Below, piece by piece: positions 1,700-55,243 of a DNA stretch of 64,000 bases; within the stretch, counting starts at the first letter, position 1; the number at the start of each line of letters is the position of its first letter. The stretch lies in the NCBI GenBank assembly GCA_044892525.1, contig CM097885.1:5582001-5646000 (forward strand), written 5' to 3'. Below the pieces are notes generated by a model that saw nothing but the letters and a program-made list of their open reading frames with translations, was not told the origin of the DNA and searched no databases. The translations under genes and the position numbers were made by a program. This stretch comes from Schmidtea polychroa. Its lineage: Eukaryota.

Positions 1700-4600
1700 T
1701 TAACTCTCAGATTGGCAGCTTGAGCTTTGCCGTCAAAGCTTTGGCCCACTCTCAATTGCTTACTCTGGCTTTACTTTCTCATAATTACCTCACTCTTATT
1801 TGTCCATTCTGACAGTCACTTCATTAAAACAAAAATATTACATAATTGACATTATTGTGATAATGAACTGCCCAAAAGTTTATAAAAATAAATATTATAA
1901 ATAAATATTCATATAAAGATTTGTCCAAAATTACATAAATCTGATAAATGTCATTTTGATCATTACAAATTGATAAATGTTTTACTGATTATCTCATCAT
2001 TTTTTGTTTCGATCTTTCATTCACTAATTTTCATTATTTAACATATAAAATAATCATGTTCATTACAAAACCAATAGCATATCAAATAATGACAATATAT
2101 AAGTATGATGACTAATTGTAATCAGCACTTTCTAATGAAATGTATTTATTATAAATATTATAATAAATTATAAATTTAAATAGTTTTATAAACAATAAAA
2201 TAATTTTAAAAACCATTTACTGCTTCATAGTCAAGCTTTTTAATAAATACAATGTCAATTGAAAAGAAATCAGTGGTAAAAATTGCAAAATGTTCTTATA
2301 ATAGATTAAATATAAATAATATTTATTAAATATATTTAAGATTTTTAATTTCATAATCATTTTATTTTTACATGTATATATTTTTAAACTCTTTCTAAAA
2401 AATATTTTATTTAAAATTTAAATTATTAAAATTAATTTAAAAATAAAATAAATAATTAAATCAAATTATTGTTAGGTAATTTCTGATGGAATATTTAAAG
2501 TTTAAATTTTAAACAAACAAATAAAATTATTATAAATATAAAATTTCAATATAATTTTATACCAAGTAAGATTTGGAATTATAATTTATTGAAATGATGG
2601 CCCGAATAATTCTCACAATTATAAATAATATTATAAAAATATTAATATTATTATTAAATTATATATTTTTAAAATAAATTGAAAAAATATTTAAATTTAT
2701 AATATTAATTTTTTTAAAAGATAACAAAATTGAAATTAAATTATTAATAAATATTAATTAATTTAAATTTTAATAAATTATTTTAAATATGAGAAAATTT
2801 CTGAAACAAAGTCGAGATTAAATTATTATTAAATATTTTAAATTTTAAAAAGAAAATAAATATTTAAATCGAATTATTGTTATGTAATTTCTGATGCAAT
2901 ATTTTAACAAACAAATAAAATAATTAAAAATAATTATTATTTTATTAAAAAAACAATTATTAAAATAATTATTAAATTATTTTAATTTTATAACCATTTT
3001 TACATGAATATATATAATCTTTTTAAAAATTATTTTAAATTTAAATTATTAAAATAAATTTAAAAATAAAATTATTATAAATATAGCATTTCAATATAAT
3101 TTTATACCAAGTAAGATTTGGAATTATAATTTATTGAAATGCTGGCCCGAATAATTCTTGGTCACAATTATAAATAATATTATAAAAATATTAATATTAT
3201 TATTAAATTATATATTTTTAAAATAAATTAAAAAATTATTTAAATTTATAATATTAATTATTTAAAAGAAAACTAAATCGAGATAAAATTATTAATAAAT
3301 ATTAATTAATTTAAATTTATTTTTATAAATTATTTTAAATATGAGAAAATTTGTAAATATTTGTTTGAATATATTTAATTGTTATTTCATATTTAACATT
3401 TGACATCCTCTCAACAATGCCTCCGAAATTTCTTACAAAATCCGAAAGGAAAACATTGGAAGAAGAACAAGATCAACAATTGATCAGTTGCATCAAATTG
3501 TCCCATAATTTTGTCAACAAAACCGAAGATCAAAGCGCACCAATGAAATCATTTGCACTTGAAAATTTGAACATGACGATCCTTGAAAAGGTTTTGCTCA
3601 AAGATTCAACTATCACAATTGAACATGGGAAAAGATATGGTCTTATTGGTAGCAATGGATCCGGTAAATCTATCCTATTCAAAGCCATTCAAATGGGCTT
3701 ATTCGACTTTCCAAAGGATTACACAATCGGAATTGTCGAAGAAGAATGTCTTGCTGATGGAACTAAAGTTGTCGAATGCTTTGTTGGTAAAGATGAAGTT
3801 GAAGATTTCATGGTGAGATTTGCTGACGTGAAAAGCAGAGCTGTCAACAAGAAGAACAAAGATGTTGAAGTACCAAAACTCGTGAAAATATTAGATGGAA
3901 TGGGATTTACTGCTGAAAAGATGAATGAGCACGTTGGTAATTTATCTGGTGGTTGGAGAATGAAGATTAGTTTGGCAACTGTTCTGATGGCTGAACCAGA
4001 TCTTTTACTTTTAGATGAACCTACTAACATGTTGGACGATAGAACTATCAAATGGCTGTCGGGATTTTTGAAAGAATGGAAGACGAATTTATTTTTCATT
4101 TCTCATGACGGAGGCTTTTTATCTAACGTTGCAACGGATTTGTTATCGATTGAAAATAAAACTGTCGTACATTATGCTTGCAAATACTACGAATGGTTGA
4201 GGAATCAAGAACTCGACAGAGATAAAGTTAGAAATCAAATCCAAGAACAAAAGGCACAGAAAGCTGAATTGATGGAATACATAAAAAAGTTCGAAAAGAC
4301 AAAAAAGAAAGAAGTCGCTGCTAAAAGACAACAAATAAAAAAGATGCCCGTCATTGATGAAAGCATTCTAGAACCGAGAGAAATCTGGAGATTTCCCGCT
4401 TGCTTGAAAATCAAGTGCGCTACAATTGAAACGAATGAAATGGGATTCAGTTTTGGTCACGCTAAAGAAATATTTAGAAACATCACATTACGCGTTCAAC
4501 CCGATTCTAAAATCTGCATCCTCGGAGACAACGGTTGCGGTAAAACTACTCTATTGAAGATCTTCATGAAAATCCTCAAACCCACCAATGGAAACATGTT

Positions 4601-5863
4601 CTTAAATGATCGAACAAATGTCGGCTACTTCAGCCAGCATTACGTCGACCATTTGGAACTGGATAAATCAGCAATTGAAATTATGCAGATCCGAGTTCCC
4701 AACTGCAAACTCGAAACTTATCAAAGTCATTTGTTGAAATTCGGAATCACAAGTGAAGATTGGAACATTCCGGTCAGATGTTTATCATCGGGACAAAAGT
4801 CAAGAGTAGCTTTCTCCACTATTTACATGCAGAAGCCTAACTTTTTGATTTTCGATGAACCGACAAGTCATTTGGATAAAGATGGAACTGAAGCTTTAGA
4901 AGATGCTTTGAGGAAATTCAAAGGAGGAGTTATTGTTGTTACTCATGATGGAAGGATGATGTCAAATGTTTGCAAGGATTTGTGGTACATCCAGAACAGA
5001 ACTGTCAGCGTTGTTGAGGACGGCTGTATGATATAAATAAATGTTTCCATAAATAATTTTGCTTTTTATTTTATTCCTCAAATTTTATACACAAATTTAG
5101 AAAAACGTCATTCTATTAAGTATCCAAATAATTAGATGTTATAATCGATAACAAGCGATAACTAGACCGATAACCAATTGGACAAGAGCTAGCTAGGCCA
5201 ATAACCAATTGGACAAGAGCTAACTAGAGTGACATCTATTTTATGAGAATACCATAAGGTTATAATCACGATTTCTTTCAATATCACTGACAAGTTTAAA
5301 TTTTGTTTTAATATTTATTTAAATAAATTAATAAAAGTAATATTCGAAATGAAACCTTTCTGAATAAACCTCGTGTTTTCAGTCGATGGATATGGATAAT
5401 TCCTAATGGAGATCTTTCAAAAGAAGCACTAAATATCTTCATTTTAGTTTTAGATATCAAAGATTCAAAACCTTTGAATCAAAGGATTTTGTAATCAAAT
5501 TAGCTTTTCAACGTCATATTGTTGATATTTCAGAGGAGCCAAAGAATCTACAAATAGAGTCAATAGAGCTCTGAATTGATGATATTGTAATTTCAATATT
5601 TAATTTGAAAAAGGATCCTATTGAAATTTGTGTCCAAATGTTTGTGAACATGCTTGATAAATGCCTTCATGATTTGTTTTCATTTCCATTACATCATTAT
5701 GTAAATCCCTTTTCGATAGTTTACATCAACATTTCCCAAACATTATATCCGTACTCTCTAAAAACAATGAATCTTTCCTCAGACTCCGTATAAAAAAACC
5801 ATAAATAATATATATTATTTATTAATAATTGTTTACTATGTTTAACAGAATATTAATGAGAAA
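1700..5863 (+). repeat. Left arm of a large inverted duplication
   Basis: Reverse complement of 10397-14026. Mirrored ORF coordinates sum to 16260 (3417+12843, 5036+11224, 5605+10655). Contains an extra local duplication (~2520-2800 repeated at ~3065-3350) that the right arm lacks. Confidence 0.95.
3417..5036 (+). CDS. ABC-F family ATPase (two ABC domains, no transmembrane domain), intronless, copy 1
   Basis: 539-aa ORF. Domain 1: Walker A GSNGSGKS, signature LSGGWRMKISLA, Walker B LLLLDEPTN, ISHD. Domain 2: GDNGCGKT, YFSQH, LSSGQKSRVAF, LIFDEPTSHLD, VTHD. Confidence 0.92.
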   Translation: MPPKFLTKSERKTLEEEQDQQLISCIKLSHNFVNKTEDQSAPMKSFALENLNMTILEKVLLKDSTITIEHGKRYGLIGSNGSGKSILFKAIQMGLFDFPKDYTIGIVEEECLADGTKVVECFVGKDEVEDFMVRFADVKSRAVNKKNKDVEVPKLVKILDGMGFTAEKMNEHVGNLSGGWRMKISLATVLMAEPDLLLLDEPTNMLDDRTIKWLSGFLKEWKTNLFFISHDGGFLSNVATDLLSIENKTVVHYACKYYEWLRNQELDRDKVRNQIQEQKAQKAELMEYIKKFEKTKKKEVAAKRQQIKKMPVIDESILEPREIWRFPACLKIKCATIETNEMGFSFGHAKEIFRNITLRVQPDSKICILGDNGCGKTTLLKIFMKILKPTNGNMFLNDRTNVGYFSQHYVDHLELDKSAIEIMQIRVPNCKLETYQSHLLKFGITSEDWNIPVRCLSSGQKSRVAFSTIYMQKPNFLIFDEPTSHLDKDGTEALEDALRKFKGGVIVVTHDGRMMSNVCKDLWYIQNRTVSVVEDGCMI

Positions 5864-6134: not shown

Positions 6135-8078
6135 TCAAAATTTATGCTTTCTAATGTAATTTGCCATCTTTGAGCATTCGAAACCCTTTTTCCCAAACTT
6201 GTAGTTATCATACGCCACTCCAAGATTTTCCAGTTTGGTAAACATTTGAACGTGTTTCACGGGGGGTAAATATCCTACAACGTTGCATTCCCGACAATTG
6301 CCAGGTTCAATGCCATGATTCGGCAGTTGGGTAGATGTTGGTGAATAAATCTGGAACCAGCACTGAAAATAGAAATTAATTAATTAAATTAAATAATAAT
6401 AAAATGTGTATGCATTCATGTAGTAAAACATTTGATTTCATTCATTTACAACTTACTGCTGCCAGATGTGTAATTGTGTAATTGTGTAAGTGTGTTTATA
6501 TTAATTTGGTGAGCCTAGCATGATATGAGCTTTCTCATTGGCCTGATTTGTAAGATATCAAATGTATTTATATATGATAAGTGACACAATTAAGATATTT
6601 GATAGAACTGGGTGGTCATTCGGCCAAGTTTCTGCACCTTAGAGTAAGATCCAAAGTGACTGTTATATATAATATTAATAAAAATCTAATAAGCTAGAAA
6701 TAAGTATTCCATATTTGGATCACAATTTAATTATTTTGATATTTACTAGTATATATAATATATATAACCTCGATTATTCTATCTATGGTGCTATGATGGA
6801 GTATGAATAGAGGATCATTTGATGCTGTTGATGCACAACACATTGATCCTTCGACCATATTGTGTACTTTGTTGTGCATATAAAGAGAAGTACTTTTATC
6901 CTCATTTCTCCCACAAAACCCTTCTAACGCCAAATGAAAAGCCCTACAGTTTCCCATATAATTTATCTTTTCATCTTTCACAAAATATCTGTCAAAAATA
7001 ACTCAATTTCTAAAAGGAATCAAATGATAAAATGTTACGAGCTGTGTCGGAGGACAAATTGTAGATCTTCCGTCAAAGGAAATTCCGTGGACATATATCG
7101 ACGGTTAAGAGGTGGGAACCTTTGTCTAAAGTGACACCCGACGCATTTGGAATTTCCCATTGGTGGGGAGCAGTACTCAGTCCAATTGTGAAACTGACTT
7201 CCTTTGTCGATCAGCCAGATTTGATTTATATAGTCGAATTTCCCTGTTGCACCGACATATCGATTATTGCAGACCTGGTTGAAATTATTCCGTCAAATAT
7301 TTGTAATACTGTAAAAAAACATTACTTCACACGTTTTAGCATCAAGCCAATCCCAATAAGGAATTGCAAAGTCCTTCCATTGAAACTCCTTCATTGCGAT
7401 TTTTGCTAGTTCCCTTTCCCAGTGCAACATCAAAGCTCGGTGCCAAGTAGCAAAGGAGACCGTGTTGTGATTGTAATCAAGATATCCGAAAGTTGAACAC
7501 ATTTGTCTGTTACCGAACAAAGTAGACCGGCTCGCATACCGATGAATAAAGGCAATAAATTCCTGAAAAGTCGCGTAGAGAAATATCGGGTTAACAAGAG
7601 GATCGGAATATTCTGGGCTTGATTCTTTCAAAACCAGAAATTCGCTGGGAATTTTATTACTTATCTCAAGAATACGCAAAAATCTCTTGCGTTCAAGATC
7701 TGAAAATGAAAAAATATTTCTTCGTATTTTGATAACTCGCTTGTCACAATTCTTTCCTTCCCAACCGTACCAACAGCTTTCACATGCGATTCCAAAGAAA
7801 TTTCCTTCACAATTGCACATTCGTTTAAAGAAACGCGTTGGCCAGTGCATTCTATCATCGTCTTTGAACACCCTTGCAATTGGTTCCCAGTGAGTATATA
7901 CTTTATCACAAACCCCTCTACCTACACCACCACAAGGCTTTTGAAATCCTTCCGGTATGGGACAACAAGTTTTGAGAGTTGAAGAAACGTTATGAACACA
8001 AACTTTTGGAACTAATCCTGAGATTGAATTGGTGATAATGGATCCGACTGTGAAGATTAACAGAATGGAGAGAGTCAT
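6135..8078 (-). CDS. Tyrosinase (type-3 copper phenol oxidase), 4 exons: 8078-7326, 7274-7039, 6988-6769, 6362-6135
   Basis: Signal peptide and Cys-rich EGF-like region (CNCEGNFFGIACESC). CuA region H...YNHN.VSFATWHR followed by PYWDW. CuB region HNKVHNM...NDPLFILHHSTIDR. GT-AG introns of 51, 50 and 406 bp join in frame; the protein ends ...RKHKF*. Confidence 0.93.
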
Positions 8079-8284
8079 TCCTTCTGAACATGCAAGAAAC
8101 TAGTGTAGAATTATCGCGATCTTTAGACGTACAATAACACGTTTCGGTAAGAGATTATATTCCGGTGATATCTGTATGAAATACATGCAAATGATTACCG
8201 CAAATCTAAATTGTTTTACTGATATTGCAAATTCGTGCCAAAATTGTTTTTTGTTTAAGACATAATTTCATTTAGGAATAAAAT

Positions 8285-10396: not shown

Positions 10397-13300
10397 TTTC
10401 TCATTAATATTCTGTTAAACATAGTAAACAATTATTAATAAATAATATATATTATTTATGGTTTTTTTATACGGAGTCTGAGGAAAGATTCATTGTTTTT
10501 AGAGAGTACGGATATAATGTTTGGGAAATGTTGATGTAAACTATCGAAAAGGGATTTACATAATGATGTAATGGAAATGAAAACAAATCATGAAGGCATT
10601 TATCAAGCATGTTCACAAACATTTGGACACAAATTTCAATAGGATCCTTTTTCAAATTAAATATTGAAATTACAATATCATCAATTCAGAGCTCTATTGA
10701 CTCTATTTGTAGATTCTTTGGCTCCTCTGAAATATCAACAATATGACGTTGAAAAGCTAATTTGATTACAAAATCCTTTGATTCAAAGGTTTTGAATCTT
10801 TGATATCTAAAACTAAAATGAAGATATTTAGTGCTTCTTTTGAAAGATCTCCATTAGGAATTATCCATATCCATCGACTGAAAACACGAGGTTTATTCAG
10901 AAAGGTTTCATTTCGAATATTACTTTTATTAATTTATTTAAATAAATATTAAAACAAAATTTAAACTTGTCAGTGATATTGAAAGAAATCGTGATTATAA
11001 CCTTATGGTATTCTCATAAAATAGATGTCACTCTAGTTAGCTCTTATCCAATTGGTTATTGGCCTAGCTAGCTCTTGTCCAATTGGTTATCGGTCTAGTT
11101 ATCGCTTGTTATCGATTATAACATCTAATTATTTGGATACTTAATAGAATGACGTTTTTCTAAATTTGTGTATAAAATTTGAGGAATAAAATAAAAAGCA
11201 AAATTATTTATGGAAACATTTATTTATATCATACAGCCGTCCTCAACAACGCTGACAGTTCTGTTCTGGATGTACCACAAATCCTTGCAAACATTTGACA
11301 TCATCCTTCCATCATGAGTAACAACAATAACTCCTCCTTTGAATTTCCTCAAAGCATCTTCTAAAGCTTCAGTTCCATCTTTATCCAAATGACTTGTCGG
11401 TTCATCGAAAATCAAAAAGTTAGGCTTCTGCATGTAAATAGTGGAGAAAGCTACTCTTGACTTTTGTCCCGATGATAAACATCTGACCGGAATGTTCCAA
11501 TCTTCACTTGTGATTCCGAATTTCAACAAATGACTTTGATAAGTTTCGAGTTTGCAGTTGGGAACTCGGATCTGCATAATTTCAATTGCTGATTTATCCA
11601 GTTCCAAATGGTCGACGTAATGCTGGCTGAAGTAGCCGACATTTGTTCGATCATTTAAGAACATGTTTCCATTGGTGGGTTTGAGGATTTTCATGAAGAT
11701 CTTCAATAGAGTAGTTTTACCGCAACCGTTGTCTCCGAGGATGCAGATTTTAGAATCGGGTTGAACGCGTAATGTGATGTTTCTAAATATTTCTTTAGCG
11801 GGACCAAAACTGAATCCCATTTCATTCGTTTCAATTGTAGCGCACTTGATTTTCAAGCAAGCGGGAAATCTCCAGATTTCTCTCGGTTCTAGAATGCTTT
11901 CATCAATGACGGGCATCTTTTTTATTTGTTGTCTTTTAGCAGCGACTTCTTTCTTTTTTGTCTTTTCGAACTTTTTTATGTATTCCATCAATTCAGCTTT
12001 CTGTGCCTTTTGTTCTTGGATTTGATTTCTAACTTTATCTCTGTCGAGTTCTTGATTCCTCAACCATTCGTAGTATTTGCAAGCATAATGTACGACAGTT
12101 TTATTTTCAATCGATAACAAATCCGTTGCAACGTTAGATAAAAAGCCTCCGTCATGAGAAATGAAAAATAAATTCGTCTTCCATTCTTTCAAAAATCCCG
12201 ACAGCCATTTGATAGTTCTATCGTCCAACATGTTAGTAGGTTCATCTAAAAGTAAAAGATCTGGTTCAGCCATCAGAACAGTTGCCAAACTAATCTTCAT
12301 TCTCCAACCACCAGATAAATTACCAACGTGCTCATTCATCTTTTCAGCAGTAAATCCCATTCCATCTAATATTTTCACGAGTTTTGGTACTTCAACATCT
12401 TTGTTCTTCTTGTTGACAGCTCTGCTTTTCACGTCAGCAAATCTCACCATGAAATCTTCAACTTCATCTTTACCAACAAAGCATTCGACAACTTTAGTTC
12501 CATCAGCAAGACATTCTTCTTCGACAATTCCGATTGTGTAATCCTTTGGAAAGTCGAATAAGCCCATTTGAATGGCTTTGAATAGGATAGATTTACCGGA
12601 TCCATTGCTACCAATAAGACCATATCTTTTCCCATGTTCAATTGTGATAGTTGAATCTTTGAGCAAAACCTTTTCAAGGATCGTCATGTTCAAATTTTCA
12701 AGTGCAAATGATTTCATTGGTGCGCTTTGATCTTCGGTTTTGTTGACAAAATTATGGGACAATTTGATGCAACTGATCAATTGTTGATCTTGTTCTTCTT
12801 CCAATGTTTTCCTTTCGGATTTTGTAAGAAATTTCGGAGGCATTTTTGAGAGGATGTCAAATGTTAAATATGAAATAAGAATTAAATATATTCAAACAAA
12901 TATTTTCAAATTTTCTCATATTTAAAATAATTTATAAAAATAAAATTTAAATTAATTAATATTTATTAATAATTTAATCTCGACTTTTTATATGTAAATA
13001 TTTAAAGTTTTTTCAATATTATTCAAAAATATATAATAAAATATATTAATGATTTAATCTCGATTTTGTTTTTTTTTAAATTAATATTATATTTATATTT
13101 AAATATTTTATCAATTTATTTTAAAAATATATTATTTAATAATAATATTTATATTTTTATAATATTATTTATAATTGTGACCAAGAATTATTCGGGCCAG
13201 CATTTTAATAAATTATAATTCCAAATCTCACTTGGTATAAAATTATATTGAAATTTTATTTTTATAATAATTTTAATAATTTAAATTTTAAATAAAATAT

Positions 13301-17389: not shown

Positions 17390-18385
17390 GGATGATAATA
17401 ATGACAACAATGACAACAATGACAGTAATGACAGCAATGACAATAAAGACATAAATGTCAGCAATGACAGCAATAATAACAAGGACAGTAATGACAGCAA
17501 TGACAATAATGACAAAAATGTCAGCAATGACAGCAGTATCAGCAATGACAGCAGTGTCAGCAATGACAGCAGTGTTAGCAATGACAGCAGTGTCAGTATG
17601 ATAACAATGACAGCAATGACAAAAATGACAGCAATGTCAGCATGATAACAATGACAGCAATGACAAAAATGACAGCAATGACAGCAATAATGACAATGAC
17701 AGTAATGACAGCAATGGCAATAATGACAAAAATGTCAGCAATGACAGCAGTGTCAGCATGATAACAATGACAGCAATGACAAAAATGTCAGCAATGACAA
17801 AAATGTCAGCAATGACAAAAATGTCAGCAATGACAGTAATTACAAAAATGACAGCAATGTCAGCAATGACAGCAATGACAATAATGACAAAAATGTCAGC
17901 AATGACAGCAGTGTCAGCATGATAACAATGACAGCAATGACAAAAATGTCAGCAATGACAGTAATTACAGCAATGACAGTAATTACAGCAATGACAGTAA
18001 TTACAGCAATGACAGTAATTACAAAAATGACAGCAATGTCAGCAATGACAGCAATGACAATAATGACAAAAATGTCAGCAATGACAGCAGTGTCAGCATG
18101 ATAACAATGACAGCAATGACAAAAATGACAGCAATTTCAGCATGACAACAATGACAGCAATGACAGCAATAATGACAATGACAGTAATGACAGCAATGAC
18201 AATAATGACAAAAATGTCAGCAATGACAGCAGTGTCAGCATGATAACAATGACAGCAATGACAAAAATGTCAGCAATGACAGTAATTACAGCAATGACAG
18301 TAATTACAAAAATGACAGCAATGTCAGCAATGACAGTAGTGTCAGCAATGATAACAATGATAGCAATGACATCAATGACAATAAC
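17390..18385. repeat. Minisatellite of degenerate 9-bp units (CAATGACAG) with higher-order blocks
   Basis: About 1 kb of AATGACAGC / AATGTCAGC / AATGACAAA variants. Confidence 0.95.
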
Positions 18386-20325: not shown

Positions 20326-20821
20326 CATTTTTATTATTAACTATTGTAATTTTTAGTAAAATATTTCATATATTTACATAATGAAACAAATAAATAACAA
20401 ACAACCTTGATGCCCCCAGAGAAAGAAAAATTGTAAAGAAAATATTAACAAAAATAATAAAAGCTTGAGCATCTAAATAAAATTATTATAATCGTTTTTC
20501 ATTGTCATTTGTTGACTTTATTCTGAAAATAATTTGTACATTTTGTATCAACTGTGACTGTAATTTTGTTACCCTCGGGGTGAAATTCTATACAGCAATA
20601 TTGATACAAATTTTATTAGATTACAATTCACAGTATTGTCTGAAATGACAGTTAATTGTCAAAGAATTATTATTTTTTTCATTATGGCAAGTTTACATAT
20701 TTTTTCTGTGACCAAGCTAATTTGCAATTGATGTGATTTCCAGTGTACCAGGAAAAGTATGCAATAAAGTTGAATCAGCAATGTTGTATACTTACCTGGC
20801 GCGAAGAGAAATCTTCGTGTC

Positions 20822-20874
20822 TCCTGCATAGTACTGATGAGAGCCAAAAGCTCGAAACTAGTCTACTATTGGGA
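20822..20874 (+). ncRNA. Minimal type I hammerhead ribozyme
   Basis: ATAGTA (stem I) - CTGATGA (core) - GAGC CAAAA GCTC (stem II) - GAAA (core) - C TA G TC (short stem III, palindromic ACTAGT, GUC cleavage triplet at 20861-20863) - TACTAT (stem I'). TCCT/GGGA extends stem I past an internal loop. Confidence 0.85.
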
Positions 20875-23800
20875 TTTGCACTGGGTTTAACAAAGTTTGT
20901 ACTGTTTATAATATATATTAAAGCTCCATAGGTTTTGGTGAAAATGGCATTGCAAATACATAGGTACCTTTATTTGATGTACAAAGCTACGTATGTATTT
21001 GCAATGTATATCCTGAATTGAAAATCTTGTTCATAGTTACTGTTAAAAATTATTTTTTTTATCAAATCTATTTTGAGATTTGATTGTTCATTATTGTTTA
21101 AAAATATGAAAATTAGTTTGGTAAATCAAATTATTTTAAATGAGCATTTAATTTAATATTAATTTTAATTAATTAAGTATAAATAAGATATAAAATTAAA
21201 ACATAGACATTGTATTTAATGAAACCTTAACTATAAAGATATCGTTTTTTTGATATTCACTAATTTTCGGCAGTGCATTTTTCAAGTGATTTTAAAATAT
21301 AATTTTTTTTTAAATTTTTTTTTAAATTTAAAAATATTTTTTGTTAATTAATATTGATTTGAAGCTTATCAAGAACTCCAAAACCAAATTTGAACTGGTC
21401 TCCTTCATACGTATTGGAATTAATCAGTTGGAATGACATCTAGTAATTAAGAGCAAATATATGGGCAGATACAGTAAGTAAATGTTATGGTGGTAAATGC
21501 CACCGGCAGTGCCGAAAGGGTTGAACATATGTTAAATTCTACAATTCATTGCGCATTGTATCAAAATTAAAATTATTTAACCATTAAATACAAGCGTATA
21601 TGAAACAGACGGATTTAAATGCATGATGGGACAAAAATAATCTGAAAAAGGCACACTGGTATTCTAAATATTCTAAATACTTGATGCTGTAATCTAATAT
21701 TTATGTAATTTCTATAACATATCTATTACATCATTTCCAAATTCGATCTGCTATAAGGATAAAAATGTGTCTACTGACCGATGCATACATACTTATTAGT
21801 GGCGTGTAGTCAGGACCACGGGACAAATGCAAATACATCCAGTTCTATTCACATTCATTAAAATGATTAATGTTAACACAAATTTGAGGTAATTGCACGT
21901 TGGTCTATTTTCTATGCTACTGCAAAAAATGTCACGTGAATTCGACACTGGTAACATCTATAACTTCTTCAAGGTATTCACAACGTTTTTAAACTTTTTA
22001 ATTCTCTTGAATGTCTTGGCTTTTTCTTTCTAAAACCAACTTTCGCTTTTTTAAATAATAAATAGAAAACATTTATCTGTCGAAAACTAAATTAAAATAT
22101 TTTTATTTGTCAATTCCTGTTACCTCCTTCCTTCCTCCGTTTTATTTCTTGGTATACGAGTCGCTCAAGTATTTTTTATATATTGAAAATGTTTGTTGAT
22201 TTGGTTCATTTTTTAAGGACTGTAATTCTTGAATTACCAAATTTACAATCTTAGTTTAAATGATCTGTCAAGTGATAATACAAGTTTAATATTTGACATA
22301 GAGGCCTTAATGAATATCAGAAAGGATATTTGAGATTCTACAATTACATAAATGACTTTGAGTGGTTTGGTGGGGTCAATATAAAGCCGTCGCATACGAT
22401 TTCATGAGTATATTAAATGAAAAATATTTTTTATTTAATTTTATGCCTCATTGGTAATTTTAGTGAATCTCTAGGTCAAAGTAAGGAGTATTTTATTAGA
22501 AAACTAAATCAAAAATTTACCCATATTTATAATTAAATCTATTTACAGGTTTTAATAAACATCTGTTTAATATTATAAAAAAATTCATCAAAATATATAT
22601 TATAAATATTTATATTTTTAATTTAATTTAATTTTTATTTTAGGACCTATAATTGTTTTTAAAAGTTATTTTTATTAAATGATTATTTTATTCTAAAAAT
22701 TGAAAAAATAAAAACAAAATTTGGTTAGATAAACTAAAACGTCATTTAAACAAAAATGAAATATATTTCAATGACATTGTCTTCATTATCATCAATCACC
22801 CGTGAAATGAATGAAGCAATCTAATTATGACTCAAATCAAATAAATATCTTCAATTACTGTATTTTGATTGGATATGTTTCAATTGGGATTGACACACAA
22901 TCACCAATACCTCACATAAAATCTTTCCTAATAATTATCAACATTTATCTGTAACAAATTTTCTCAATGTTGCATGATAGTTTCTAAACTCTAGGGAAGA
23001 GATGTCCTAAAATATCTAATGTATATAAGTTAAGGTGACCAGATTAAGTTAAGGCCACTGCAAAACTAGTCCACGATGTAGAATTGCACCCACTAAGAGT
23101 TTTCCTCTGCATCTGACTGAATTGTAATAGAATTTTTTATTTTGGGCTTCTGCTAAAGATAAAATTTCAAGCATTTAAGCTTTTTCAATGAAACAATCAA
23201 GGAATAGGATCTAGATTAGTTGACACGTTCTAATCCACCGGTGGTATTTTTCTGACTTAGATCTTCCAGATTCTCATTTATCTCGTTCATTATACGATTC
23301 CATTAAAGATGCAGTCTGTAAACTCTGCTTGAAGGGGTCCTTTGAGAAGAAAGACGGAGGCTTATAAAGAGGAAGAGTTAGAATTCAAATTGTGCATACT
23401 TGACTAAAGATTTTGTTATAAAAATGAATTTTTTACTATTTTGCCATCGAAGTCGCAACAAACATTCCAAACAACCCGGTAGGTGGGAAAGTTATATAAA
23501 TGAGGGTTATAAATTAATAATTTTCCGATTTAAATCATTTATTAGATGGCAGCTGCAAATTAACTCCCCAAGATTTTGTTGATAAGAAGGATGACGAGGT
23601 GTTTATTGCTGAAGATTATTTTAGATTTAATTTGGATAATAAAACTTTGATGCTTTTGTTTACACAGGTAAGATTTTTTTAAATGTATTAATGATTTGGC
23701 TAAGTGCGAACTGGGAGGGGAGGTTGTGGAGTCAGGATAATTAGTTTCCTACTCCGACTGCAGATCCATGTCCGAAATTAATCATAAATTATTAAATTTT

Positions 23801-29770: not shown

Positions 29771-31813
29771 CGTATTCCGACAATCCGCCAACACGACAAT
29801 CCAGCAAGTACGACAATTCGCCAAACGACAATCCGCCAAATGACAATCCGCCAACACTAAAAAATTGGCCAACGCTGACATTTATAAAAAAAATATTTGT
29901 AGGTCATCATATTAAAATTAATTCACATGTACTTGTACAACAAATTTGCCTAAATAATCATTCAAATAAAAGCATTAAAATCAAATCAGTATCATTGCGA
30001 CATGTTGAATGTGAGTAGTACTCTTGTGAGCAATACCCATAGGGGGTCAAAACATCTTGTCGGATAAACTCAGAGTATATATAATAAAACGAATTAACTC
30101 ATTCAAATTTATCTTTGAATCAGTCAAATTATCACAAATTTTGATAAAAAATCTTGTTTACCTCTCAGCCAGTTAAATTGTTTAAATATTTAATTAAAAT
30201 TTTATATTAAACCAGGGGTTCTTAACCTTTTTTACATCATACCTCACCTAATATTTAATTTGATGTTCTCACCTCCAGCAGAATTATTTTTTTTAAGAAA
30301 AGATAAGAAACATAATTAGTGGTATACCAACATTACATATATTATTTTATTTTCACCATTTTAATATATTTATAAAAAAAATTATATTTAATTCATACTG
30401 TGATATAAAAAATTATATTTTATATTTAATTCATATTGAAAAAATTTATTTAAAGTTTAAAGATAGAAAATATGTGAAAAATTTAAAGAATAATTCCCAA
30501 ATTCAAAGAATATTTTTTATATAAATACTACAAAATAATAAGGCAGCATTAATGAGATGATTGTTGCTGCTTGTCGTCAATAAGATGCGAAATTCGCGGA
30601 ACAATCTTAGACAATGCTAAGCGCATGTCATGCCTGGCATCCAATCGATTTCTGGTTTTCGGCTTTACATTGACCAATGTTGAAAATGCAGATTCGCAGA
30701 GGTATGTTGTTGCAAATGGTATCAAAGCTGAAAGAGCTTTATTTGCCAAAACCGGATAAGAATCTATTTGTGAGCACCAAAATTCATCAAGATTTTGGTT
30801 GATAAATTTTTGCCTGACCATAGCCTTGCTCTGTAAATCAATGAGGTCGTCTTTTTGCATGTCAGCATCATCCAAGGAGTCTAAATTAAATATGAAGGGA
30901 TTTCGAATCCACTGATCAATTTTCAAATTGTTTTCTACAAAGTAGTTATCAAAAGAATTCATGAGATTATCCAAATGTATTAAAATATCAGTTCGAATCC
31001 AATCTGGCACCGCTTTTAATAAATATTCAGCACAGAAAATTTTTTCTAGAGATGGGAAATTTGCATAATTACCTTTTGATACGCGGTTCTTCCAAAGAGC
31101 TAGTTTTTGCTTGAAGGCTGTAATCTTCTCATTTGCATCTAAAATAGTAACTTCTGACCCTTGAAGGGAAATATTTAGATCATTTAAATGTGAAAATACA
31201 TCTGCAAGATAGGCCAATGATGCAGTAAAATTGTGAGTTTCAAACTCTCCACACAATTTATTTTCTTTCTCTCGAAGAAATGTTATTATCTCCATTTTGA
31301 GTTCCAGGACACGAGTGAAAACTCGTCCACGTGAAATCCAGCGTACATCAGTGTGATAAAGCAGCATTTCATGAGAAGCTCCAACTTCTTGGCATAATAT
31401 TTTGAAGAGTCTGTGATTCAAAGCTCGAGATCGGAAGAAATTTACAGCTTGGACAGTGATATCCATGGCAGACTTGAGTCTTTGTGGAAGAGTTCGTGAT
31501 GCCAATGCATGGCGATGTAAAAAACAATGCAGAACCATAACATTTGGAGCCCTCGCTCGTACCAATGCTCCAAAACCAGAATTTTTCCCTAATAATTAAA
31601 CAATTACTAGTTGATTCTTATCTTTCAGCGGAGAATTTATTATTAAAATTTTAAAAATATAATAAATTTAAAATGTATGTATGTTAAAACAAAAATTTAT
31701 CGACTTTTTGGCAGATTGTCGCTTTGAACTATTTGGCGGATTGTCATTTGGCGAATTGTCGTTTGGCGGATTGTCGCCAGCCTATTAATGATTTGGCGGA
31801 TTGTCGTACAACC
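29771..31813. mobile_element. MULE/Mutator-like non-autonomous element with repeat-rich TIRs, carrying nested fragments
   Basis: GACAATCCGCCAA repeats at the left end are inverted as TTGGCGGATTGTC repeats at the right end. 9-bp TSD AATTTGAAC at 29762-29770 and 31814-31822. Confidence 0.8.
30213..31592 (-). mobile_element. 5'-truncated hAT Buster/Charlie element (ZBED8/SCAND3-like transposase, C-terminal half; ORF 30549-31565)
   Basis: Motifs HCFLHRHALAS, LLYHTDVRWISRG, LAYLADVF, FATTYLCESAFS and ...QQQSSH*. One TIR CAGGGGTTCTTAACC at 30213. Confidence 0.9.
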
Positions 31814-33664: not shown

Positions 33665-36600
33665 ATGTCACAGACACATCATTCGATATTTGAAGATCAA
33701 GCCAAGGAACTGTATTTTCTCTGTGATGAGGAGAAAAAAGGATTTATTACCAAGGAAGACATGTATCGACTAACTGACCATTTACCGTTGAATAAAGAAC
33801 AATTCGAATCGGTTTTTGATTCTTTGGATGATGATAATAATGGAAATTTGACATTGGAAGAATTCATAGTCGGTTTCAGTATGGACGATTCTAAAGGATA
33901 TGACATTTTATCCCAGTTGTCTAGGTAAATTCTTAGGAGCACCGGTCGAAATTCCCCACGATGATGATTTGGAATTCGAAGATGAGGGATCATCCCTTCA
34001 CCATGTGGCCCAGGAGCATTTGGAACATCTTATAGAAAAAATGAAAATTGTTGGATTAACCGAAGAGTAAGTTTCTTGAATTAAAGAGACATTTAAAATT
34101 TAGTAATACTTGTATGATATTTCAATTAATTTCCCCATTCTTAAAATATTATATAATACGTGGGACTACAGGTATATACAATAGGTTCTTGGGGGAGGGG
34201 CTTTCAGTGTTGATTTCCTACAACAATAATTATCACACGTGTTCCTTATATTTTGTTAATCCTGGCTAATATTCGCGCCTCCCAGTTTAGGAAACACTGA
34301 ACTAGAGCTAAGAAAAGCACTTGCACTTAATACTTTCGCTACGGGGCGCTTTTGCATAATTTGTGTCTCAGTATGGCATGCAAACGGCCGTGTGGATTTA
34401 CACGGTTTTAGTGGTTTAGTTTCATTTGTTAAATAATTTATTTTATGTATTTACATGGTAAATTATAAAAATGATACGCAAACACGTAATAATATGAATA
34501 ATAAATATCATAAAATATGCTTGTTTGTGTGGTATATTTCAAAACATTGTTGACGAACAAGATGAAACATGCCAGCGGGTCGGTACAAATAATGAATACT
34601 CGTAAATCAATATTTCACATGTTTATAACAATTTTATTAGTCTGTATCATAATTAGAATACATCGGATTCGTTTGGTTCCCGTAACAAGTAATAAAATTT
34701 TGCTTTCGTATTTATCCGACTCTCGTATTGCGGCTTCGTGCGGTTCCCGTGGCGAGAGGGTTAACCAATTAGATGTAACTCAAGTACACTCATACCTCGC
34801 TTTACGGCCTAGATACGTTCCAGGAAAGTTGGCCGCAAAGCGAAACGCCGCATAACGAATCAAATATTTTGATACAATTCCATACACTTTCACATACACA
34901 ATTCACACTTTTTTTGGCCGTATAACGAAACATTTTAGGCCGTAAATCGAAAAAGTGCCGTTATTTATTTCATAGGAGTTTGTGAAAAAAGAATTAAATT
35001 TATTTGTTAAATTATGGACATTTTTGTGCAAGCATTTACCGGAAATTAAAACTTTAAAATTTCTTATTCATGAAAAACGGACACGAAAGCATGGGATAAT
35101 AATATTGTTATATTAATAAATAACTTATCCATTTTGCACTCACGCGTTTACCTATTGCAGGAACCATGTTTATTTACGAATGGACCTTTGCTGTTAGTAT
35201 AAATAATTAATAATATAATAATTGAGACGGGGAAGAGAGAAGTTGATCTGATCAATTGCTATCATGATCCACCCAATCAAGGCATTTTATGTATCGGAAA
35301 TTAAAGAAATAAGGATAACTTACCCACTGCCAACCGTATTACTAATGAATCAAATGTTGCTTTTTCATAATTTGAATTCATTAAATTACCAATAAAATTT
35401 TAGATTATTTAACTTATATTTTAGCATTGACAATATAAAAGAAACTTGGAATCAGTTGCAGAACAGCAATGCCGAATTACTGAGCCATTTCGAAACTTTG
35501 ATAGAAACCATCATATCAGACATGCACAAAACTAAAAATGAATACAGTACATTGGAGGGGGTGCTGAAAAAGTAAATTATATAATACTTTATCCATTTAT
35601 GTATTTAAGCAAATCGAACATTTACGACGAGGAAATGAAACGACTATATGACGAAATGGATCTTCAAATAAAAGCGGAAAAAGAACGGATCTTGAACGAA
35701 GTTAATTTCACATGAACTTTAATTTGCTATATTCATAAGTCCTTAGGAAAAGAAACGAGAAAAAGAAATTAAAGATAATTTAGAAATAGAAATACGTGAA
35801 AAAGATAAACTGTATCAGGAAATTTTAAAAGATCATGACAAAGTAAATTTTAACCACGATTATTAATTATTCACCTTTTCTAGACAGCTAAAGAACTGCA
35901 AAGCTTAAGTGACATTCATTCAGAATCAAGTCAAGAGCGTGAAAGATTAGAAAAAGAAAAAAATGAACTAGAAAATAAACTCAGAGCAACTGACAAATCT
36001 CTCCGAGACTGCCAAGAATACATCGATGAACTTAACAAAAAATCAAAACAGGATCGGAGAAATCGAGCTAGAGCCGCAATCGAAATGACAGAAGGCATAG
36101 CTTTAGAACGTGAAAGCTTGGTTCGTCAACTTGATGAATTAAGGTACCAATCACTAATTGTGGCCCTAAAGAGGGCCATTAAAACATTCACAAAATTATT
36201 TAACTAGATTCTTTTGGTGTCTTTTTCGGTAACAAAATGGCTTGAATATTCGGTAAAACACCACCTTGAGCAATTGTAACTCCTCCAAGAAGCTTATTCA
36301 ATTCTTCATCGTTTCGAATGGCCAATTGCAAATGACGGGGAATAATCCTAGTTTTCTTATTATCTCTAGCCGCATTACCCGCCAATTCCAAAACTTCAGC
36401 TGCTAAATATTCGAGAACTGCAGCCAAATACACAGGTGCTCCAGAACCAATGCGTTCAGCATAGTTTCCCTTACGTAGTTTTCGATGTATACGACCTACT
36501 GGGAACTGTAACCCTGCCCTTGAACTTCGAGTTTTAGCTTTAGTTCGCGTTTTGCCTCCACTTTTTCCTCGTCCACTCATAATTATAATTAGTGTTTAGA

Positions 36601-39600: not shown

Positions 39601-42600
39601 AAGACAATTTCTTGGGCAGGAAAAAAACTCCACCCAAAACATTCGCGTGTGCACAGCACAGCGTAAGCGGTATAGTTATCCGGCCCGGGAGACATTTTGA
39701 AAATTTCATTTTGAACCGCACTTAAAAGTATTTGCCTACCCCTGATTTTGAGAGATAAATTTTTGAAAGAATTTTGCCAAAACTACTTCATTAATTGAAA
39801 GCGCATAAAATTTGCTATTTTCCATTTTTATCTTATTTTGTTTCTTTACTTTTTGTATCAAAGTTGTGTATCAAGCTGTTATATTGAAAATATTAATTTA
39901 AATTTATTCTTGTAAGTGTTCAATAATGAATCTGTTACACTGTTTGATCTATAATCTCACTCTAAGGTCTTTGAAAAGAAACTTACAAGAAACTTATAAT
40001 GTGTTTGAGAGTTCAGGACACGCCTCTGTTTTTGAAACTGTGGTAAGCGTTATATCAAATTTAAGAAATTATAATTTGCATTTCTTATTGCGGTTTGATC
40101 GTGAAATAATATGTCAAAGTCTTTATATAATTACATTTCATTATTTAATGACGTAATAAATATAATATTTTTAAATCAATTATAATTATTTTGAAATTCT
40201 GATTTTACAATGAGCATAGACATTATTTTACAGATATTTCAATTGTTTGTCATTATAAAATTTGCATATATTAATAGCCGTATTAATACATAATCAAAAT
40301 ATTGACATAAAATCTTTCTCTTATTAGCATTTCAAAATTTTTATCGTTAAAATTGAAACTTCAGAATGGTCCAGAAAAGCCAGAAAGAATATTTAAAGTC
40401 GTTTTCATTGGGGACTCCTCTGTTGGTAAAACAAGTATTATAAAACGATTTTGCAACAATGAATTTCGCAGTGAAGGCTTGGCTAGTACAATTGGTGTTG
40501 ATTTTCAAATAAAATCCATCAGAATCGATGCATATTTCGTGGCACTTCAAATATGGGATACTGCTGGACAGGAGCGGTAAAACATTAAAGGGGTTTGAAT
40601 GTAATGACAACGAAATCGTTTTTCTCAGGTTTCGCAGCATAACTTCACATTATTATCGGAAATCTGATGGAATAGTTATGGTCTATGATATTCTTTCCGA
40701 GTCGTCTTTGGTAAATTTACGGCAATGGATGGAGAATGTTAAAGAAGTAGTTGAAGATGAAACTGTGATATTAGTTCTGGCCAATAAATGTGATATGGTT
40801 CAAGACGAGGAAAATAGAAATCAAGCCAGTCGATTGAAGGAGATTCTTAATGTAAATAGTTTATTATCGCTATCAAGTATTCAAATGTTGTAGGTGGAAA
40901 ATGTTCTATATTTTCAATGCAGCGCTAAAACGGGAGAAAATATAAATGAAGCATTTCAGATCATGGCCAAGTGATTACATTTTTTAATTTTTAATAAATT
41001 TTTAATTATATTATGAATAATTTTTGGAGATAAAATAAATGTATAAAATAATAAAATGAAAATATTAATAAATTAGACCTTTTTGGGAAATACTTTTTTT
41101 CTTTTTCGATTTTATCTGTTGTTTTTGACGTTTTACATATAAAAGGGTGCATTTTAGGGTTATTGCGGTTTGATCGTGAAATAAAATGACAAAGTTATAT
41201 AATCACATTTCATTATTTAATGTAATAAATATAATATTTTTAAATCAATTATAATTATTTTGACATTTGATTTTACAATGAGCATAGACATTTCTTTTTA
41301 CAAATATTTCAATTGTTTGTCATTATAAAGTTTCCACTATATTTTTCAAATATCTCATGGCACATAAAACGATGAATCAAGAAATATTTTTGTCTTAATC
41401 TCAAAACAATGTGATTTAGAGGTTGCAACGTTCTTCAATGTTCTCAAGTTATTTGTCCAGCATCAAAGCGTTGTAATTTTTCAAAAAGGAATTCATAGCC
41501 AATTCTCTAAACTATGTTTGATGCATATGAAACATATGATAATTTGTGATCGTGTAATTTCATTAAATAATCCACAAAATGTTCCCTTGGATGTCCTTTT
41601 CTTTGTTCGGTTGTCTCAAACTTGAGAATGATGTTGTAATCAATATGATTATCTTCGACTATTTTTTCTGTGCGATTGACAAGGAATTGTTGATTATAAA
41701 TCACCTTGACAGTTTCTTAGTTCGATACAAGACCATTTAACAGGTTGATTTTATATTTTGTTTGTGTCATTTATAAATAATTGTAAAAATATGAGCCTAT
41801 TTACATTATTGCTGTTGATATGTGTAGCCAAATTAATTAAATAATTATTATAAATATTATTGATATTTTAATGATTAAATTATTTAAACTTTGTTTAAGT
41901 ATTTTATATATAATATATATTAAAAATTTATTAACAAATGTCTAAAATAATAATATTACATCGAAAATAATAATAATAAAATTAATGTGTTGAGTATGTG
42001 TGTAAAAATAAATAATTTAGGTTTGAAATAATAATAATAATTTACATTTGCATTACCTTTTGTTTGATGTATATATAAGGTGACCAGACGTCCCGATTTA
42101 TCCTGCATCCTGCCAAGTTTTTCAAAAGTCCCGACTTTTAGAATTAAGTTAAATTTTATTTTTATTAAAATCACTGTTTTGCATTCTAAGAATCCTACGG
42201 ACTCCTAAGACTAACATATTGCTTTTCTTACCCAGTTACATTGTATTTGTTTCTCAAATGATACACTTCGTGTTCGTACTGCGTGCTAGGAAGCTAATTA
42301 AACAAATAAATATTACAAATCTGCTACTTACCATAGAAAATTAAGGTAAGTAATTTATTTATATATTTCATAAATACATAAATTTTCTTAAACTTAGCTT
42401 AAAATACTCGTAGTCTTCAATTTTATATATTGATACCAAAAAGGGCGACGCTCTGATATGGGTCACCCGATTTTCAAAAAAATATTTAATTAAAATTAAA
42501 TTAAAATGTATAATTAAATCAATGGTCGCAAGGGTACCCTTGCGACTATTACCCTTGTGAGCCGTACCCATAGGGGGACAGAATATCTTGTCGGATAAAC

Positions 42601-46181: not shown

Positions 46182-49100
46182 TATAAACTTTTTAAAATTT
46201 AAACCTCGGACCCTTTGACCTTTAAGAGTATGACCATCACAGCCCCGTACCGTGACACCTTTTGACGGGGGGGCCCAGACTCATTAAAGGGGCCAGTAAT
46301 TCTCGTGTAAACTAAGTATTTTATGAAAACAGACTAGTCACTACTCACACTTTGCACTCCGAAATGTTCAATTTAAAAAAAAGGAAAGCAAAATCGACAT
46401 TTTGTCTGAGCATTATTTTGCTACATTATTGCATATACTAGTATATAGGAAATGATTTTCGCACATTTTTTAGGAACAAACACAAAAAACAAATAGCTGC
46501 ATGTATTTGCACGACGGACAATTGGACATACAAAGACAGAACACACAGTCACACAGATTTGAAAACTAAAGGTGAGTGCAAAAGAAATTACACAGGAACT
46601 AGATCCAGAAAAAAGAAATTACGTGTGTGAGATATCGACATGACTCAAAATAGCTGCAGAACTTGGAATTCCTCTTCATTGCGTAGGCTGCGAATGCGCT
46701 CTATGACGGCATCCATAACATCACATGCTGAAGAAAGGTCCATTGCTTGACCCTGCAAGCTATTGTTGGCTGTTTCAAGGATAGTCAGCAATGAGAGCAC
46801 CATGTGTGCAATGAACTGAAACTCCACTTCATTGACTCGATGCAAGAGTCCAGTAGCTTCCAATTGAATATCAATTGAAAAGTGAGAATGTCTACTAGAA
46901 CACATCTCAAGCAAATTCACAATTGTATCATAATTAGTTGTTATTGCCTGAGTCGTCTGCAAGTGTCCTGTCCAACGATGTTCCATGAGCCGTGTCAATT
47001 TATCGCCTTGATATATGGCCACAACCTTAGGATATGACAAAAATGTGTATAAGTTTCTGCATATGTCGAAGAAGTCCCGCAGTTTTTGGCTCTCAGAAAC
47101 GGCACACACAACAACCAAATGCAACTTGTGGTTGAAGCAATGGACATACGGAATTTCTATTTGTAGACGCTCCTGAAGCAAGGCCTGCACCCCACCATGC
47201 TGTCCAGACATAACAGCGGCTCCATCATAGCATTGGGAGATTATATTTTTAGGATCCAACTGAGCCTCTTTCAAGGTTGTCAAAATTACATCTGTGAAGG
47301 CCTCTGCATTGAGAGAAATTGTTCGGGAAATGCAGATTAAGTGCTCCTGAGGTTGTCCTGCTGAGACAAACCTTATGGCAATCGACACATTCTCAGTCCC
47401 TGTTCGATCTTTGGTACCATCCACCTTCAGAGTAAAATATTCAACATCCGCAGACTTGCACTTCTTAACAATTGACTCTTGCACTATTGATGCCATTAAC
47501 GCGATAATTTCATTTTGAATTCGAGGTGATGTGTACGTGGCAATTTTGGGAATCGTTTTAATGATTCGAGCCAGCTCAGGATTTTTCTTAACAGTGTATT
47601 CGAAGAGACGTAAAAATAGACCACACGGAAGCTTATCATCCTCATCAATATCATCTCTACTGAAACTGTCACCACGAAAGGCTAATTCATTTGTCACAAG
47701 AAACTTTACAACGTCAACGATTTCGTTGACATAATAATGGTTGTTCTTCAGCTGTGTTTCATTAATCAAAGTGCAAACTTCCTCACCTTTTTCACATCTC
47801 AGCTGTTTCTCTTTCCAGCGTTCCATGGCATGGATGTGGCCAGCAGAAGATTCATGCTTTTGAAAACCTTTTCCTTTTTCTAAAGCCAATTTCCAATTTC
47901 GGAATCCTCCTGTTCTGAAAGCACTTTCGCCAGCAGAGCCGGGCAATGAAAATTTTCTACAGCAAAAGCAGAAGACTGCATCTTTCTCAATAGAGTACTC
48001 CAAATATGGTCCTCCAAAAATGAGCGTTCCCTTGAACCAAACGAAGTCTTTGGGAAATTTACATCAGTTGGCTGGCGTGGCATTTCTTCACCCAGATCAC
48101 ATTTAGTAGATGACAGAGTCTTAGCAGGTGCACAAGAAGATAAGGACATCACTGCACTGTCACGGATACATGAAATAGCAGGTACAGATGAAGGACTAGC
48201 ACAAGTTGAGGACATAGTAGCAGAGATACTATCACTGAATGAAGTGACTGAAGTCACAGAATTCTTTGGAATGACGTGGAAGAAATTCATGATACTCTTT
48301 TGTGTCGACATGTTCTAATACGATGAAAATAATGTTACAAAATATGATCAATTAACATGTCACTCTGCCATAGGAGTGAGTTGAGTATAATGACATGTGA
48401 TGTGCTCTCATTGGCCTATCTCTCTACCATCGTATAAAGACCACAATGCACCCACTCCGTGCTCTGACACTCAATCATGCCTCCATGCGTTGTTACTGCC
48501 TGTGAGGCAGGAAAGACAGACAGCACGCACCCTACCCACGCCACCGACTTCACATGCCAGTCTCTTCCAGTGAGGCAGATAGATGGAACATCCTACCCCC
48601 GTCCATACTACATAAACCTCTACATGTGCAACTCATGCACACCCATGTCAATGCATGTGTGCACGATAGCAATTTTTCTATTATCAAACATATTGAATGT
48701 AATGCAGTGATTCACATTAGAGCAACTGTTGTCGACAACGTTTGGTATCGACAATTGTTGCGCTGTTAACATTTGGTGTTAAGCAATCCTGTGAGGCTAA
48801 TATTTTAATTGTCCAGCACTACCCTTTAACGATTTGGGGAAATTTATAGACACACTCCGGGGTTCGAATTCCGTACACATCTGAGAAATTTCGCGACATG
48901 TAACATTGCTTTACTAATTTAAAAGACCTCACCACCCATTGAAAGTTTTGTTAGAGAATCTTTATTAACTTAAGAAAATGATTAAGTCTCAGTTAATTAG
49001 GATACGAGAAAGTTTTTATTTAGTGAAATTTAAAACGATGCTCCGACTTTAATTAAAAGGTTTCTTTAGGATTCGGCCCATTATATAGTGCTTATTAGAT

Positions 49101-54576: not shown

Positions 54577-54835
54577 TTGAGAGCTTTAAAAAGGTTAGAA
54601 AAGCTATTTAAAAACATTGGAATTGCCAATGTTAAAATTATTTCAAAGTATTGTAAAATTCGTGCTATATCTTTAACACATTTTTTTCAAAGTTATATTA
54701 TCGTATATCGTTTTACGTGTAATGGGTGTTATACCATATACATTGAGGAGACTTCACGTTATCTTTGTACATGAGTGCAAGGGCACACCCGATTGAGTGA
54801 AAATACTAATATTATTGAGCATGATAAGGCATGCA
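54577..54835 (+). mobile_element. Penelope-like retroelement GIY-YIG endonuclease remnant
   Basis: IVYRFTCNGCYTIYIEETSRYLCT*VQGH matches the PLE motif VY.F.C..C...YIGET.R.L..R..EH; degenerate. Confidence 0.75.
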
Positions 54836-55243
54836 AGTCAAAAATATATTATCAAATATTTATTTTCAAAATATATTTCAAAATTAAATTTAAAAAAATG
54901 CTGTTCCTTTATTTATATAAATAAATTACCATTGTTATTTAATAGTTTATTTTTTAGTGTAATAATATATTTTAATGGTAATTTTTCAGTTATTTTGTAA
55001 TTAGTTTTCATAGTTTTGACTTAATAAGAATTTTTAAAAATAGAATTTCTGATGTATTTTTTTTAGTTATTACTCAACACTTTGATTATTTTCTCAATGT
55101 GTTTTAATTTAAAGTTAGCAATTTTAGCACAAATCCTACCAAAAACAGAAATTAACTACAAAGAACTTAAACATGTTTATAAGGAATGATTAATGATTTA
55201 ACTATTCGAAAAATCCATAATTTCTTTTTTACATTTAAAATTA

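Follow-up and report, generated by a model that had tools for sequence, protein, structure and literature searches.

An internal U1 snRNA-like fragment in a hammerhead retrozyme family of Schmidtea polychroa

Animal non-LTR retrozymes are non-coding tandem repeats with units of 150-450 bp and less than 50% GC, in which each unit contains a type I hammerhead ribozyme and forms a highly self-paired monomer; in the available parts of PMC7229834 and bioRxiv 10.64898/2026.07.22.740005 they occur together with Penelope-like elements, and platyhelminths are named among their hosts. Hammerheads are also found in Penelope-like repeats; according to PMC4209133, their short helix III is palindromic and functions in dimeric form, and the repeats combine a fixed 3' end with 5' truncation and inversion. 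Newt satellite 2 consists of tandem type I hammerhead units, again with a palindromic helix III (PMC2837043, PMC7229834, both in excerpt). A fragment of a spliceosomal RNA in a non-autonomous retroelement is described for SINEU, a group of crocodilian SINEs with U1- or U2-derived heads; a template switch was proposed for its origin and no promoter was found, as far as the accessible part of PMC4494074 goes.

The family presented here, known from its DNA sequence, resembles the retrozymes in hammerhead type, unit size, base composition, self-pairing, lack of coding capacity and the co-residence of Penelope-like elements. It differs from them in that it contains an internal 16-19 nt piece of the host's own U1 snRNA and in that no target duplications were found. 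In the text available of the two retrozyme sources the term 'snRNA' occurs once in PMC7229834, in a reference, and nowhere in bioRxiv 10.64898/2026.07.22.740005. With SINEU the family shares a U1 5' sequence that became fixed in a non-autonomous retroelement; unlike the 5' heads of SINEU (PMC4494074, part of the text), the piece is internal (monomer positions 257-275), very short and located beside a hammerhead in a tandem, Penelope-type element, and the 5' ends of two among 55 copies lie no more than 6 nt away from it. Like the Penelope-like hammerhead repeats, the family has a fixed 3' end, 5' truncations, inversions and a palindromic helix III, and the microsatellite tails are those of a local Penelope-like family, L239; unlike these repeats, as portrayed in the consulted part of PMC4209133, the family is devoid of an open reading frame, has a canonical helix I of 6 bp and helix II of 4 bp instead of the minimal form, and lacks longer stretches of homology to L239. 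In the openly accessible full-text literature no description of a U1 piece in a hammerhead retrozyme was found. The U1 fragment is an unusual and probably real feature of an otherwise ordinary retrozyme.

The locus lies in a stretch of 64,000 nucleotides (the window; positions 5,582,001 to 5,646,000 of contig CM097885.1) of AT-rich DNA from a 781-Mb assembly of Schmidtea polychroa. A reading of the letters alone, the original prediction, had pointed to a cassette in which the 12-mer ATACTTACCTGG, taken as the U1 5' sequence, is followed by a 10-bp hairpin with a GAAA tetraloop and by a hammerhead. We find the 12-mer at 20788-20799, the hairpin next to it and, directly behind, a complete type I hammerhead (Table 1). 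With at most one mismatch ATACTTACCTGG matches once in the window, with 0.17 matches expected and at least one in 16 of 100 shuffles; judged inside one window, the enrichment of the 12-mer alone is only modest. What had not been seen is that the cassette lies within a 378-bp repeat of high copy number, that the U1 match extends to 16-19 nt when the host's own U1 genes are used for comparison, and that an inverted arm upstream is predicted to pair with the 12-mer.

Table 1. Features of the retrozyme copy in the window (positions are those of the window).
Feature	Position	Strand	Evidence
5'-truncated copy of the retrozyme monomer (157-378 of 378 bp)	20688-20909	+	94% to the L027 monomer; sole copy in the window
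Doubtful promoter remnant: 10 nt that match, in reverse orientation, the -67 motif of one host U1 promoter	20717-20727	-	Post hoc p 0.01-0.07; forward profile test negative; pairing of overlapping bases with the 3' tail also predicted
5' arm of the stem closing the hairpin A / hairpin B / hammerhead junction	20739-20747	+	Predicted to pair with 20877-20885
Upstream arm of hairpin A, nearly complementary to the U1 piece; resembles a donor on the plus strand; predicted to mask U1 nt 1-12	20748-20766	+	Folds; 3 polymorphic positions among copies
Probable U1 snRNA-derived segment, nt 1-19 (monomer 257-275)	20788-20806	+	Identity of 16/16 nt with host U1a genes, of 18/19 with the tandem U1 type on C4 and with an orphan U1-like start
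Hairpin B, capped by a GAAA tetraloop, with U1 nt 11-19 as its 5' arm	20798-20821	+	Predicted length 10 bp if the RNA begins at 20788 and 8 bp within the whole copy
Type I hammerhead with an extended stem I, the core, a stem II of 4 bp and a short palindromic stem III	20822-20874	+	Predicted cleavage after 20863; presumed active
3' arm of the closing stem; contains the 'U1A-like' letters, predicted paired	20877-20885	+	Folds
Fixed 3' end of the family; resembles the 3' end of the Penelope-like element L239	20899-20909	+	50/54 non-duplicate loci reach monomer position 370 or beyond

A first look at the genome gave 2,019 candidates for the cassette region, with the best at 93-95%. Exact 14-mers taken from the U1 piece and from the hammerhead occur 1,518 and 1,956 times genome-wide (controls: 0 and 3), and the copy number of the family amounts to about two thousand. 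Head-to-tail dimers and trimers of the unit were seen, and most sampled copies are truncated singles. The sample consisted of the first 60 loci of the U1 14-mer list, with the locus of the window excluded; all 64 U1 14-mer sites in it belong to the family and 63 have the hammerhead region behind them. Removal of six segmental duplicates left 54 loci, at which adjoining pieces of the family are inverted (17), direct (14) or absent (27). The 3' ends that were scored (n = 64) continue into (AAT)n/(ATT)n in 21 cases, into the next unit in 21, into (AT)n in two and into other sequence in 20. The 5' ends are spread: two of 55 lie at monomer positions 251-252 and none later, with no pile-up at U1 +1, which is a weak test for RNA starts since the templates were probably cut monomers. 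A target duplication was found at none of the 25 single copies tested, by a test that excludes pure A/T repeats; a duplication of more than 4 bp is an optional feature of retrozymes. By its testable sequence features, namely one type I hammerhead per unit, tandem non-coding units of the appropriate size with less than 50% GC and a highly self-paired monomer, the repeat is a non-LTR retrozyme. The four runs compared consist of contigs. In one possible RNA run a contig spans the junction between units, as a circular RNA would give but also a tandem transcript or DNA, and run X2, which may be DNA, covers all 30 bins evenly including the junction, in contig depths that are no measure of abundance.

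Descent of the piece from U1 is supported by more letters than the 12-mer itself. The element is identical to the host U1a genes over 16 of 16 nt and agrees at 18 of 19 nt both with a U1 type arranged in tandem on C4 and with an orphan U1-like start; past the match, identity falls to 2-6 of 21 and no further alignment is obtained. The match begins exactly at U1 +1, the start falling on position 257 of the 378-bp monomer. An exact run of 16 compares with a maximum of 14 in 60 shuffles and with an expectation of 6e-8 per monomer. Letters +13 to +19 agree at 4 of 4 positions with U1a, at 6 of 7 with the C4 type and at 7 of 7 with the orphan, for which we roughly estimate a chance of 0.01 over all paralogues. 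The letters past +12 are an independent check, since they lie outside the earlier observation and are not predicted by the donor consensus. On these grounds it is highly probable that the piece descends from U1. The original prediction was also right in that the rest of U1 is missing: no similarity was detected beyond nt 19 (p 0.055-0.995 in 36 of 36 comparisons), the Rfam U1 model (RF00003) does not match the cassette even at E values up to 10, and stem-loops I-IV as well as the Sm site are absent from the element. A diverged full-length U1 is rejected by the lack of similarity past nt 19, and identity as a U1 gene by the absence of the full U1 fold and of the Sm site.

The genome contains several U1 types, at least six of them divergent (L031, L034, L035, L040, L041). 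Several differ within the 5' end that reads splice sites, and on C4 a long tandem array with a period of about 1.77 kb is built from two types in alternation. The orphan U1-like start (L033:679-701, minus strand, and downstream; G000:C1, around 80.769 Mb) is a single copy in a cluster of U1 and U5 genes. Its body is not recognised by Rfam and may, by eye, retain helix H and a decayed Sm site; we consider this locus a degenerate U1 paralogue that is perhaps close to the donor lineage.

The hammerhead of the window copy is composed of stem I (20828-20833/20864-20869, 6 bp plus extension), the core (20834-20840), stem II (20841-20853) and a very short palindromic stem III, with a GUC cleavage site. 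In PMC4209133 such an architecture is given as the usual form of type I hammerheads in animals, one that cleaves as a dimer. No Rfam model reaches its gathering score on the cassette; the best hammerhead model, Hammerhead_HH9, gives 24.4 bits (E 0.00088) with a gathering score of 52, below the threshold for membership in this Rfam family. Another core that resembles a hammerhead, with a perfect stem II of 4 bp, is present at G000:C1:174223318-174223406; it has no relation to the retrozyme family.

From cleavage site to cleavage site the monomer is predicted to be strongly folded (z = -8.4; none of 100 shuffles as stable; 69% paired). In the modelled folds of the whole copy and of the monomer, nt 1-12 of the U1 piece pair with the upstream arm of hairpin A, and nt 13-19 provide the 5' arm of the GAAA hairpin; in the whole copy the unpaired probability of nt 1-12 is at most 0.13 at 11 of the 12 positions. 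Opening of nt 3-11 would cost 13.4 kcal/mol in the whole copy, 7.5 kcal/mol in the fragment that ends at the cut and 2.9-3.2 kcal/mol in RNAs that start at +1. A perfect duplex with a splice donor would gain -14.0 kcal/mol, about equal to the cost in the whole copy. By these opening costs a guide would exist only in an RNA that begins at +1. Sequence variation lends the fold modest support. The frequent variants (n = 49, many of them alignment gaps) are unpaired in 21 cases, pair-keeping in 22 and pair-breaking in six, and eight frequent one-sided changes preserve pairs. Two-sided covariation is nearly absent (three of 27 pairs, one sequence each, among 26 selected copies), and the alignment fold recovers only four pairs of hairpin A. 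Frequent variants occupy four sites on the partner arms of the U1 arm and none on the U1 arm itself, where about 0.75 would be expected in 19 nt, a difference that is not significant in a copy sample chosen on the 14-mer; this may hint at constraint on the U1 letters, in counts that are small and partly biased. The heptamer TTTGCACT, for which a likeness to the U1A loop had been noted, is present as read, but the likeness to a loop is lost with its predicted pairing to 20739-20747. Mimicry of the U1A loop and of the 70K loop is rejected, both sets of letters being located in predicted stems.

Remnants of an endonuclease in the flanks of retrozyme copies led to a young Penelope-like family with 11,997 candidates. 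One member, L239 (G000:C1:111246100-111249750), has an intact frame of 873 amino acids with a reverse transcriptase domain and a GIY-YIG-like C terminus, terminal repeats of 738 bp and its own minimal hammerhead. The 3' end of L239 is followed by (AAT)n, and its final letters are nearly the same as those of older retrozyme copies. Beyond these last few bases no homology was found between the retrozyme and L239, the one Penelope family examined (best match 15 nt, E 0.17). Matches to the Penelope family are present at eight of 90 retrozyme loci; six of the eight are not adjacent to the retrozyme, and at two of the 90 the elements are joined at distances of 1 and 17 nt. At L030 an inverted retrozyme piece runs directly into Penelope sequence of 96% identity, a junction that a template switch inside one insertion would give. 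The retrozyme thus has a co-resident active Penelope-like family, with which it shares the target and the 3' end and forms chimeric junctions, and most likely it is moved by such an element; since no longer homology connects it with L239, we infer rather than observe the partnership. The chimeric junctions add support at the sequence level for the mobilisation of retrozymes by Penelope-like elements. The possibility, raised by L181, that the U1/hammerhead piece is native antisense coding sequence of a Penelope element was rejected, as the intact L239 lacks the piece and L181 is a chimera.

We propose, with a probability of about 0.55, that the repeat is a non-autonomous non-LTR retrozyme mobilised by a Penelope-like element, in which a fragment of U1 was captured by a template switch and became masked. 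Tandem units would be transcribed, and the hammerheads, probably acting as dimers through the palindromic stem III, would excise monomers of 378 nt, which may circularise. The reverse transcriptase and GIY-YIG endonuclease of the Penelope-like element presumably copy the monomers with the fixed 3' end as starting point, (AAT)n/(ATT)n tracts being frequent targets, and this copying would leave the 5' truncations and inversions. An ancestral element could have gained nt 1-19 of a host U1 through a template switch of this enzyme, for which the available part of PMC4494074 offers a precedent; an internal U1 piece needs two such switches, one onto U1 and one back. The piece would then have been built into the fold of the monomer, and its predicted pairing, nt 1-12 upstream and nt 13-19 downstream, makes it a masked passenger, not a working guide.

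Among the other explanations is promoter capture, in which insertion of a hammerhead element near position +19 of a U1 gene could have brought the external snRNA promoter into the tandem unit; transcription by Pol II from +1 and the first cut would then yield a capped, U1-headed RNA of 76 nt (20788-20863) as a by-product, and the next cut would free the monomer. Newt satellite 2 has an snRNA-type promoter and can serve as a precedent. The match starts exactly at U1 +1, as this route demands, but the same start is equally expected from reverse transcription up to the U1 cap. In an RNA starting at +1 the 5' end is predicted to be open (2.9 kcal/mol). Host snRNA promoters have a weak common motif near -70, and the element contains, in reverse, a 10-nt match to this motif of one host promoter (p 0.011-0.017 for three copies and 0.074 for the young copy); the match was noted post hoc, however, and is also reached by seven of 56 overlapping control windows. 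In the forward direction the element does not match a profile of 12 promoters of host snRNAs (scores -5.0 and -5.5; p 0.73 and 0.82), in which the motif is itself weak, and the upstream region does not align with the flanks of U1 genes. An inverted copy of the U1 piece occupies bases -40 to -22, and the letters around -65 are predicted to pair with the 3' tail. One contig of run X3 starts exactly at U1 +1; it was discarded, as the common variant at place 1241, 30 nt further downstream, would cause a 31-mer branch to begin at this very base. Taken together, promoter capture appears unlikely. Its fuller version, in which the retrozyme acquired the front of a U1 gene with the promoter and its arrays yield both the capped 76-nt RNA with an open donor-reading end and a monomer or circle with the same letters locked in a hairpin, is quite unlikely. 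If it were true, a mobile element would release from hundreds of loci an antisense RNA that mimics U1 and is able to compete for 5' splice sites, and this mimicry would be switched on or off by the start position of the RNA. The sharp U1 mark at a known position permits a direct test of how retrozymes are transcribed and built: 5' ends at +1 would explain the transcription of the family and imply a U1-like by-product that could disturb splicing, whereas without them the family would still clearly exemplify the capture of a spliceosomal RNA fragment by a Penelope-type enzyme, in an element that masks a potentially disruptive antisense sequence.

The two remaining explanations are those of the original prediction. 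One regarded the cassette as a small RNA of about 90 nt that combines a donor-binding guide with a ribozyme; in a functional RNA of this kind the ribozyme would form the 3' end or cut targets in trans. This explanation gains from the constancy of the arrangement, in that homologous copies keep 12-mer, hairpin and ribozyme together instead of losing the first two: among the first 50 listed of 1,064 matches, anchored by their flanks, a count by eye gives an exact 12-mer in 34 and a recognisable one in 48. No subfamily variant affects the U1 arm, and the 76-nt form is modelled as a single-stranded end beside a helix, as in U1. Such retention is, however, about what neutral decay of a young family gives, and the cassette has turned out to be internal to a retrozyme monomer in which the U1 letters are predicted to be masked and the U1A-like and 70K-like letters to lie in stems, with neither an Sm site nor any other part of U1. 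Nor was the layout found in a second family: one pattern run against the genome gave 18 matches, by eye 15 mutants of the family and three unrelated sequences, and thus no sister family, and of the 118 loci among the matches listed in a metagenome scan none had hammerhead geometry, with the copy of the window passing as positive control. We therefore regard a functional guide RNA as very improbable. The simpler suggestion, a consensus donor for a minus-strand transcript, accounts for 11-12 nt of the match and leaves the host-specific agreement at +13 to +19 unexplained. Read on the minus strand the 12-mer is a perfect donor, introns do occur in Penelope repeats (PMC4209133, excerpt), and the 12-mer might alternatively serve to mask, by complementarity, a donor that the upstream arm carries on the plus strand, this arm being donor-like with a GT in 10 of 50 copies (position 222); a scan over many repeat families could also meet a 12-mer by chance (5e-5 per monomer). 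Among 13 matches listed, contigs from three possible RNA runs, no loose end was located at the donor. An origin without U1 ancestry is already weakened by these results and seems to us distinctly improbable.

The surroundings of the element within the window include an imperfect palindrome 40 bp beyond its end (20947-21009) with weak matches to miRNA models on both strands, and a 9-bp tandem array of about 110 copies at 17400-18380. Pieces of hAT and DUF4371 transposases and a decayed remnant of a Penelope endonuclease are located at 30549-31595, 46645-48063 and 54688-54846. Two frames of 555 amino acids in inverted orientation (3369-5036, plus strand; 11224-12891, minus strand), the first of which encodes a two-domain ABC ATPase, flank a tyrosinase exon at 7293-8099. 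Histone H2A is encoded at 36200-36595 and a Ras-family exon is found at 40513-40893. The sole Rfam match of the window at gathering score is a mir-753 precursor at 61165-61226 on the minus strand (81 bits).
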